DNA of 11,896 bases from IMG/VR virus record IMGVR_UViG_3300039360_000021. One strand, 5' to 3'. The notes under the pieces are model-generated. The model did not search any database and had not been told where the DNA came from. It was given only the letters and a program-made list of their open reading frames with translations. The position numbers and the translations under genes are program-made. This document shows positions 8,793-8,945 of this stretch, in pieces (position 1 is the stretch's first letter; each line of letters begins with the position of its first letter). This DNA comes from a virus. Its lineage: Duplodnaviria > Heunggongvirae > Uroviricota > Caudoviricetes.

Positions 8793-8867
8793 GCCGACTT
8801 AGCTCAGCAGGTAGAGCAACTGACTTGTAATCAGTAGGTACCAGTTTGATTCCGGTAGTCGGCACCA
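8793..8867 (+). tRNA. tRNA-Thr (anticodon UGU), with a non-canonical T-arm
   Basis: Hand-folded cloverleaf: perfect 7-bp acceptor stem GCCGACT/AGTCGGC, D-arm GCTC/GAGC, anticodon stem ACTGA/TCAGT, loop CTTGTAA giving anticodon TGT, 3' CCA encoded. The T-loop reads TTTGATT (T where C56 is normally conserved) and the T-stem has one A-C mismatch. Confidence 0.75.
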
Positions 8868-8870
8868 TAT

Positions 8871-8945
8871 GCGGGTATCGTATAATGGCTATTACCTCAG
8901 CCTTCCAAGCTGATGATGCGGGTTCGATTCCCGCTACCCGCTCCA
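8871..8945 (+). tRNA. tRNA-Gly (anticodon UCC)
   Basis: Hand-folded cloverleaf: acceptor stem GCGGGTA/TACCCGC, anticodon stem TCAGC/GCTGA, loop CTTCCAA giving anticodon TCC, canonical T-loop TTCGATT, discriminator U, CCA encoded. Resembles host glyT as I recall it. Only 3 nt separate it from the preceding tRNA. Confidence 0.85.

Follow-up and report, generated by a model that had tools for sequence, protein, structure and literature searches.

What does a temperate phage gain from two tRNA genes that closely resemble genes of its host, and how should a copy be interpreted that departs from the canonical tRNA structure? The question is raised by a stretch of 11,896 nucleotides (nt) of viral DNA (Caudoviricetes; IMG/VR record IMGVR_UViG_3300039360_000021), here called the window, in which a tRNA-Thr(UGU) gene and a tRNA-Gly(UCC) gene lie in tandem. 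An earlier note, made from the letters of the window alone, offered three possibilities for the unusual Thr copy: a phage-adapted variant, a decaying copy, or a tRNA with altered processing or modification. Our analysis suggests that the pair is most likely a codon-supplementing cassette situated near its promoter, and that its Thr member is a recent drift allele in a resident prophage.

According to ARAGORN, the window contains only two tRNA genes, both on the plus strand, with exactly the coordinates and anticodons that had been assigned to them before (Table 1). The covariance model of Rfam (RF00005, gathering score 29) assigns 69.9 bits to the tRNA-Thr (E 6e-14) and 65.6 bits to the tRNA-Gly (E 1e-12). 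In the ARAGORN structures and by covariance score, both are class I elongator cloverleaves, with a 7-bp acceptor stem, a D arm, a 5-bp anticodon stem with a 7-nt loop (U33, purine at position 37), and a 5-bp T stem with a 7-nt loop. The nucleotides of the conserved tertiary contacts (G18, G19, U54, U55, C56, A58, and the Levitt pair 15-48) are all kept in the tRNA-Gly. The tRNA-Thr retains G18, G19, U54, U55 and A58, but it has U56 instead of C56 and lacks C48, without which a U would face G15. Its four stems, its anticodon loop and its encoded CCA are intact in sequence. Threonyl-tRNA synthetase relies on G1-C72, C2-G71, G35 and U36 as identity elements, all of which are present in the tRNA-Thr (G1, C2 ... 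G71, C72; anticodon U34-G35-U36). For glycyl-tRNA synthetase, the identity elements are the discriminator U73, G1-C72, C2-G71, G3-C70, C35 and C36; these are likewise present in the tRNA-Gly (GCGGG...CCCGC-U-CCA, anticodon UCC), which appears to be intact.

As host reference we used thrU, tyrU, glyT and thrT of Escherichia coli Nissle (thrU at L004 601-676). The two mature tRNAs of the window are 96-97% identical to thrU and glyT, and the earlier impression of a likeness to these two members of the host operon, minus tyrU, is thereby borne out. The likeness covers the mature tRNAs only. In E. coli and Salmonella the operon reads thrU-tyrU-glyT-thrT-tufB; tyrU, thrT and all host spacers are absent from the window pair, whose genes are instead joined by a 3-nt TAT spacer. 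Homology to the flanks of the host operon was sought to see how tyrU was lost, and none was found beyond 1-2 nt of each tRNA end; hence, the deletion route of tyrU cannot be reconstructed. The genes thrU and glyT, which are single-copy genes for minor isoacceptors in the host, are shown to be the ancestors of both tRNAs, with only the mature sequences conserved.

The differences from the host genes are few. In the tRNA-Gly two positions are changed, i.e. the pair C6-G67 is replaced by the compensated pair U6-A67 (window 8876 and 8936), which lies outside the identity elements; the gene was correctly described as canonical in structure, although it is not identical to glyT. Three differences separate the tRNA-Thr from thrU: C16 instead of U16 in the D-loop (8808); the loss of C48, the Levitt-pair partner of G15, between 8839 and 8840, which leaves a variable loop of 4 nt instead of 5 (GGUCACC to GGUACC); and U56 (8847) in the T-loop UUUGAUU. 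Of these variant features only U56 had been recognized by the earlier note, which overlooked the short variable loop and U16C. The T-stem mismatch that it listed in addition is real (A52·C62), but it occurs in host thrU and in every phage copy as well; it is therefore inherited and no sign of divergence. Besides this mismatch, the window shares with the host genes the anticodons UGU and UCC, the encoded CCA, and the 4-nt variable loop of the tRNA-Gly.

How severely is the tRNA-Thr affected? Its covariance score compares with 73.8 bits for host thrU and 72.2 bits for the ancestral prophage allele; by score, it is far from a pseudogene, and the low value named earlier as the mark of one was not obtained. 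Folding by minimum free energy (MFE) did not discriminate between the alleles: a cloverleaf-like structure was obtained for the variant but not for host thrU, with weak z-scores in either case. T-loop modification enzymes also recognize C56; a change in modification or processing is reasonable as a consequence of U56, but not as its design. Furthermore, C56U converts the G19-C56 pair into G·U; G19-C56 is a conserved elbow pair that is central to the interaction of the D- and T-loops (PMC7912444). The variant gene probably still yields a tRNA-like product, with reduced stability, processing or T-loop modification.

The allele is rare, and its history can be followed in related prophages. Its exact sequence has no match in IMG/VR (2.9 million viral contigs) or among the GTDB species representatives, and the combination of U56 with a 4-nt variable loop is found in none of the at least 120 IMG/VR cassettes listed. 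In complete E. coli genomes, the pair is matched at 99% or more by only five records; hence, the variant allele occurs in at most 5 of 5,426. The closest other prophages, which are 98.8-99.3% identical over the window (Eco_23-2667, A10, AR436 and the IMG/VR contig L123), have C16, but a 5-nt variable loop and C56. The IMG/VR contig L134, 99.8% identical over 8544-11640, has U56 with a 5-nt loop. Because L134 carries U56 alone, and an allele lacking only C48 was searched for and not found, C56U came first and the loss of C48 second. Both changes are recent and took place within one prophage lineage. Among the three possibilities raised at the outset, such a pattern of recent, two-step drift or decay therefore fits, but a conserved phage-adapted design does not, given the handful of genomes, the normal alleles of near relatives and the L134 intermediate.

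Elsewhere in the family, position 56 is strongly conserved: 69 of the 72 distinct tRNA sequences in all fetched loci (386 tRNA genes) keep C56. In tRNA-Thr, C56U arose at least twice, since it is found independently in a Met-Lys-Thr-Gly cassette (L132/L133), whose tRNA-Gly has G18A, so that both elbows are hit; a lone tRNA-Gly with U56 is present in L118. Over the 1.18-kb non-coding stretch 8544-9720, in comparison with its nearest relatives, about seven changes are specific to the window lineage, two of them in the tRNA-Thr and none in the tRNA-Gly. For the 75-nt tRNA-Thr, about 0.45 changes would be expected versus the two observed, and the Poisson estimate (P about 0.08) is not significant. 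Most likely, an accessory tRNA is drifting here, with neutral or mildly deleterious effect, and the variant allele is not a phage-adapted design.

The pair itself is common. With a 60-nt query, the cassette junction was found in 877 of 5,426 complete E. coli genomes, at 1,102 places and up to five times per genome; with a pattern spanning the junction, the cassette was found in at least 120 IMG/VR contigs. It also occurs in the isolated phages vB_EcoS-683R6, phi467, PhiR47_1, SerU-LTIIb and JLK-2012, and RefSeq annotates its copies as tRNA-Thr plus tRNA-Gly. The window has all the features of this family, namely a thrU-type tRNA-Thr, TAT, a glyT-type tRNA-Gly, the strand of the late operon, and a conserved downstream region of about 400 nt; 400 nt 3' of the tRNA-Gly are conserved in 68 cassette loci. 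In the cassette copies compared, the majority allele of the tRNA-Thr is identical to thrU, and the commonest cassette alleles are 100% identical to the host genes. Two types of tRNA-Gly exist, one identical to glyT and one with U6-A67; the latter allele is common to about 50 phage copies, and its score exceeds that of host glyT (64.9 bits with the same Rfam model). About half of the cassettes are four-gene arrays consisting of Met(CAU), Lys(UUU) or Arg(UCU), and then Thr-Gly; the other half, the window included, have a structured leader where the first two tRNAs would sit. Another combination seen is Asn-Thr-Gly. The pair is a widespread, already annotated and apparently portable cassette of temperate phages, and not a new kind of tRNA.

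Several members of the family deviate in their own ways. In SerU-LTIIb, which carries the cassette twice, a thrU-type body (L003 1122-1197) has the switched anticodon UCU, is annotated as tRNA-Arg, and shows a D-stem mismatch and G31·U39; a tRNA-Thr body with the anticodon UUU (Lys) is found in the IMG/VR contigs L075 and L119. In the tRNA-Thr of L012, L017, L032, L034, L122 and L131 (the latter being JLK-2012, 2495-2570), the 3' strand of the anticodon stem reads UCAUC or UCACC in place of UCAGU; here the stem is shortened and the CAG motif altered, which is the class of change reported for resistance to P2 Old. The JLK-2012 tRNA-Thr looks chimeric, with a 5' part through the D arm of the phage-21 type (L135 1581-1656) and a 3' part of the thrU type, which suggests recombination between two phage tRNA-Thr lineages.

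As regards genomic setting, four complete E. coli genomes (strains 746, SCU-109, ECamp083 and MS14384) contain a prophage to which the window is 100% identical save for one insertion. The prophage of strain 746 is lambdoid and full-length, occupies the Rac locus and extends from intR-xisR-recET-kilR-ydaTUV to lambda-like head and tail genes beside ompN. The tRNA pair lies in its interior, between Q and the holin gene; intR is about 15 kb away, and the opposite end 27 kb. Immediately 5' of the tRNAs are genes for DUF1367, YbcO and a DUF1133 protein; a phage-21-type holin gene and then a lysozyme gene follow on the 3' side. An identical copy of the DUF1133 gene (L001 8106-8648) matches Pfam DUF1133 with 357 bits and Phage_antitermQ with 27.4 bits (cut-off 26), and it is annotated as 'antitermination protein Q' in phage ON470595. 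The location of the pair downstream of a Q-like gene, as proposed from the window alone, is thus supported.

A candidate sigma-70 promoter precedes the pair, with a predicted transcript start at about 8736. Its architecture (TTGNNN, 16 nt, TAT(T/C)AT or TAATAT, about 7 nt, GGTTC) is kept in every cassette of the hairpin class, across about 30 diverged flanks. The likeness to the cassette of L005, which has another context (after a methyltransferase gene) and lies 2.6 kb from Q, starts exactly at the promoter; hence, the promoter, leader and tRNAs appear to be portable as a unit. A second conserved motif, TTGAC(G/A) (window 8686-8691), stands 16-17 nt 5' of the -35-like element; many cassette classes have it, though some do not, and it may serve as a binding site or as an upstream element of the promoter. 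Beside it, at 8685, the window lineage has a private C-to-T change. Two further promoter-like sequences were noticed. A match within the tRNAs (8859-8886) is regarded as chance; in the leader, a G-to-A change of the window lineage at 9041 creates a perfect TATAAT (9038-9043), with TGGAAA upstream at a spacing of 18 nt (9014-9043).

Between the promoter and the tRNA-Thr, the transcript would form a leader hairpin, in which tandem G·A pairs separate the outer stem (GGUUCU/AGAACC) from an inner G/C stem. Its consensus (GGUUCY, GA, GGGG ... CCCY, GA, RGAACC) recurs in at least 29 different variants of the cassette, despite great differences in their interiors. Among 18 distinct sequences, pairing holds for 95.5% of the cells, and compensatory changes occur at three pairs; G·U pairs in the leader are compatible with RNA from the plus strand only. 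The hairpin matches no Rfam family. A role in processing or in the protection of the 5' end is among the possibilities. An intrinsic terminator precedes the phage 21 tRNAs, but the leader hairpin of the window is rejected as a similar one because no U run comes after it; its interpretation as a tRNA remnant ending in CCA is unsupported, with the CC inside the stem and no likeness to the tRNAs that occupy this slot in four-tRNA cassettes. The only strong intrinsic terminator detected by a terminator scan lies downstream of the tRNAs. At the 3' end of the leader transcript there is, over a stretch that ends in this terminator, a weak resemblance to STnc100/PasD-like small RNAs (sRNAs), below the gathering score; a 2026 preprint connected STnc100 with the PasD sRNAs found in prophages of pathogenic E. 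coli.

The order of elements would thus be promoter, structured leader, tRNA-Thr(UGU), TAT, tRNA-Gly(UCC), about 370 nt of conserved non-coding RNA, and intrinsic terminator. In the model that we propose, the cassette would be transcribed from its own predicted sigma-70 promoter, RNase P and 3' trimming would free the two CCA-encoded tRNAs, and these may add decoding capacity for ACA and GGA codons. Because the first strong terminator is found downstream of the tRNAs, they would be made whenever the promoter fires, in lysogens too, while polymerase modified by Q would continue into the lysis genes. Neither the Q-binding and pause elements of phage 21 nor any such element for the DUF1133-type Q of the window was identified at the promoter; to our knowledge, no consensus for these elements exists for DUF1133-type Q proteins. 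Lambda 6S RNA is a short leader transcript from PR' to tR'. Leaders of this kind (lambda 6S; StxS, PMC7547250) have a promoter right after the Q region, a short non-coding transcript and a strong terminator before the lysis genes, and the candidate promoter and terminator of the window would give a comparable arrangement. They differ in that the leader of the window would be about 600 nt long and contain two tRNAs, and in that its promoter-plus-cassette unit also exists far from Q. The PR' promoter of lambdoid phages (lambda, Stx) is constitutively active and terminated nearby (PMC7547250), and, going by pattern matches only, activity in lysogens would be expected for the window too; constitutive expression of the pair is plausible if its promoter acts like the lambda and Stx late promoters.

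For the codon-supply role, codon use in the annotated prophage genes of strain 746 was set against that in a sample of 28 host genes from this genome. Per 1000 codons, ACA is used 11.5 times in late genes, 17.9 times in early genes and 7.3 times in the host sample; the corresponding values for GGA are 12.0, 17.9 and 8.0. The prophage hence uses these codons 1.5-2.4 times as often as the host gene sample. Within the Thr and Gly codon families, the odds ratios are about 3 for early genes and about 1.4 for late genes. The counts agree, modestly, with a codon-supply role. ACA-codon bias has likewise been invoked for the tRNA-Thr(UGU) genes that lie downstream of Q in SfI, Sf6, ST64T and phage 21 (PMC3636060).

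Comparable tRNA genes are known from other phages. The array of Stx phage 933W is ileZ-argN-argO, and a literature search for these three names gave no match. Stx-phage arrays near stx (a tRNA-Met/Ile-like gene with anticodon CAU plus two tRNA-Arg genes) have in common with the window that promoter-proximal tRNAs for minor codons are located downstream of Q (PMC7946995); the window differs in having only Thr and Gly, with the leader hairpin in place of the first two tRNAs. The Asn(GUU)/Thr(UGU) pair of phage 21 (also of Sf6, SfI, BTP1 and P22-like phages) occupies the same slot from Q through the tRNAs to an S21-type holin. This pair likewise belongs to lambdoid or P22-like temperate phages, lies on the strand of the late operon and includes the anticodon UGU (PMC3636060, PMC12445682). 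However, the partner of the tRNA-Thr is Asn in phage 21 and Gly in the window, and the annotated order in phage 21 is PR', Q-binding element, start site, terminator, tRNA-Asn and tRNA-Thr, whereas the tRNAs of the window stand 5' of its only strong terminator. The two tRNA-Thr are also distant in sequence: tRNA-Thr21, which has been shown to counteract P2 Old and whose sequence was taken from the phage 21 genome (OL657228), departs from thrU at 26 of 76 positions, anticodon stem included, while the window allele keeps the anticodon arm of thrU.

This arm matters for the question of counter-defence. P2 Old kills by cutting the host tRNA-ThrU(UGU), and resistance needs an altered CNG motif together with a shortened anticodon stem (PMC12445682); AriB of the PARIS system cleaves Lys(UUU), Thr(UGU) and Asn(GUU), and its cut falls between positions 40 and 41 (PMC12409363). 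A decoy would be expected to have the anticodon of the targeted host tRNA, which the window copy has, UGU being targeted by both P2 Old and AriB. It would also be expected to carry substitutions in the cleavage motif (CNG and a short stem for Old, positions 39-41 for AriB), which the window copy lacks: positions 27-43 are those of host thrU (ACUGA-CUUGUAA-UCAGU), without the changes that give resistance to P2 Old or PARIS. The resistant tRNA-Thr(UGU) of virulent phages (T5, T4 and the library tRNA 'Thr6') have the same anticodon and would replace the same host tRNA under attack by AriB or P2 Old, but their substitutions are at or near the cleavage sites, or their anticodon stem is shortened, whereas the changes of the window fall in the D-loop, variable loop and T-loop. 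By published criteria, the window tRNA-Thr should be cleavable, and an anti-defence role of this allele is not supported by its sequence beyond added gene dosage.

How do other explanations compare with a codon-supplementing cassette whose Thr member is drifting? Perhaps the tRNA-Thr is a dead pseudogene whose elbow and core lesions block folding, RNase P processing or stability, so that only the tRNA-Gly functions. Both U56 and the loss of C48 strike conserved tertiary partners (PMC7912444), C56 is kept almost throughout the family, the two hits follow each other in one lineage, and the tail-fibre genes of the strain 746 prophage are already pseudogenised. Yet the tRNA-Thr outscores the intact tRNA-Gly, its stems, anticodon loop, identity elements and encoded CCA have been spared, no further disabling mutations have accumulated, and class I architecture admits both a 4-nt variable loop, as in the neighbouring tRNA-Gly, and a G19·U56 wobble; we thus regard a pseudogene as unlikely. 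Far less can be said for an artefact or a boundary effect, i.e. a chimera with the chromosomal thrU operon or a tRNA attachment site at the end of the prophage. The high identity to thrU and glyT, and the fact that tRNA genes are often integration sites, would suit such a reading, but the pair lies well inside the prophage, the same arrangement recurs in independent complete genomes and isolated phage genomes, and no homology to the flanks of the host operon is present. Neither gene is identical to its chromosomal copy; identity of both had been named by the earlier note as the mark of an assembly chimera. With this non-identity and the internal position, both readings are rejected, and their probability is next to nil.

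A different kind of explanation makes the variant an adaptive allele, in which a remodelled elbow and variable loop escape a nuclease or toxin that targets tRNA, or alter T-loop modification, such that the phage tRNA is a resistant substitute for the host tRNA-Thr(UGU). The main target of P2 Old is indeed the host tRNA-ThrU, and phage tRNA-Thr(UGU) genes, that of phage 21 included, rescue cells (PMC12445682); the three tRNAs cleaved by AriB (PMC12409363) are combined in cassettes of the types Met-Lys-Thr-Gly and Asn-Thr-Gly; some family members have altered 3' anticodon stems; and C56U has recurred in tRNA-Thr, with a mild excess of changes in the tRNA. In the window, however, the C28-U29-G30/C40-A41-G42 motif and the U36AAUC|A41 site are intact within an unaltered anticodon arm, and the study of Old found this arm to be decisive, T-arm swaps to be minor, and extra host tRNA-ThrU to give little or no protection (PMC12445682). 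The scarcity of the allele in complete genomes and its absence from viral contigs do not favour selection either; no mutation is commoner than C-to-T, and various cassette copies bear singleton lesions of their own. An adaptive allele is therefore highly doubtful. In a stepwise version, C56U and the loss of C48 would have loosened elbow and core, leaving a tRNA that is still charged and decodes ACA but is handled differently by a factor that reads shape or modification (a nuclease or toxin, TrmA/TruB, or RNase P). If true, this would be a route of nuclease evasion by tRNA shape, distinct from the anticodon-stem mutations described so far; the evidence makes selection unlikely, and we rate this version, too, as very improbable.

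Some observations weigh against our own preference, a codon-supplementing cassette with a drifting tRNA-Thr. The enrichment of ACA and GGA in late genes is modest, and AGA and AGG are more enriched, yet the phage has no matching tRNA. The cassette promoter is a conserved pattern only, and the position of the tRNAs relative to tR' is not uniform in the family, since those of phage 21 come after the terminator. The mild excess of changes in the tRNA-Thr fits relaxed constraint, but would fit positive selection as well. Finally, isolates from several countries have retained the variant allele, which means that counter-selection is not strong.

Table 1. Features of the window that bear on the tRNA pair, with their positions and the evidence for each.
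Feature	Position	Strand	Evidence and remarks
Q-like late-gene antiterminator gene (DUF1133)	7194-7736	+	Pfam; interrupted by N run 7577-7618
IS200 insertion between the terminator of the Q gene and the cassette promoter	7841-8547	+	Rfam STnc490; Y1_Tnp; alignment breakpoints 7840 and 8544
Candidate sigma-70 promoter (-35 TTGCGA 8702-8707, 16-nt spacer, -10 TATTAT 8724-8729)	8702-8729	+	Consensus scan, 9/12 matches
5' leader hairpin, ending 3 nt before tRNA-Thr	8737-8789	+	MFE -20.5 kcal/mol, z -2.1; covariation
tRNA-Thr(UGU), CCA encoded, thrU-derived variant allele	8793-8867	+	ARAGORN; Rfam tRNA model; comparison with host thrU and 120+ phage copies
TAT spacer, cassette signature	8868-8870	+	TAT in 118/122 cassette copies compared
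tRNA-Gly(UCC), CCA encoded, glyT-derived, U6-A67	8871-8945	+	ARAGORN; Rfam tRNA model
Weak STnc100/PasD-like sRNA resemblance, 3' end of leader transcript	9142-9339	+	Rfam RF02076, 27.3 bits (gathering 47), E 0.0011, full-length model match
Strong intrinsic terminator, 8-bp stem and T run, candidate tR'	9310-9337	+	Terminator scan; conserved in relatives
Phage-21-type holin gene (essD), first late/lysis gene downstream	9724-9939	+	Pfam Phage_holin_2_1 'Bacteriophage P21 holin S', 119.8 bits; RefSeq essD

The insertion by which the window differs from the four complete genomes is an IS200 copy, composed of an STnc490 5' untranslated region (UTR) RNA (7849-7972, 73.9 bits), the Y1_Tnp gene tnpA (7982-8440) and a hairpin at its end (8522-8540). 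None of the closest genomes has it, and it is private to the strain of the window. On its 3' side lies the AT-rich region that precedes the tRNAs. The IS200 copy is not part of the cassette, which it parts from Q in this strain only, and it was inserted later than both mutations of the tRNA-Thr (C56U and the loss of C48). Two runs of N, one of 42 bases in the Q-like gene and one of 22 bases in the IS200 5' UTR (7914-7935), look like masking and break the calls of open reading frames. The prophage also contains more tRNA-related cargo, a gene for epoxyqueuosine reductase (QueH, tRNA queuosine pathway; 3817-4485, plus strand), as well as a DUF1971/TehB-like gene on the opposite strand (5098-5436, minus).

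In practice, these results yield a clean annotation: a mobile Thr(UGU)-Gly(UCC) cassette that is common among temperate phages of E. coli. Interest in its family stems from tRNA-Thr(UGU) being the key target of P2 Old and a main target of PARIS, and some relatives have Lys(UUU) or Asn(GUU) partners and altered anticodon stems; the copy in the window lacks the signatures of resistance and therefore adds little in this context.

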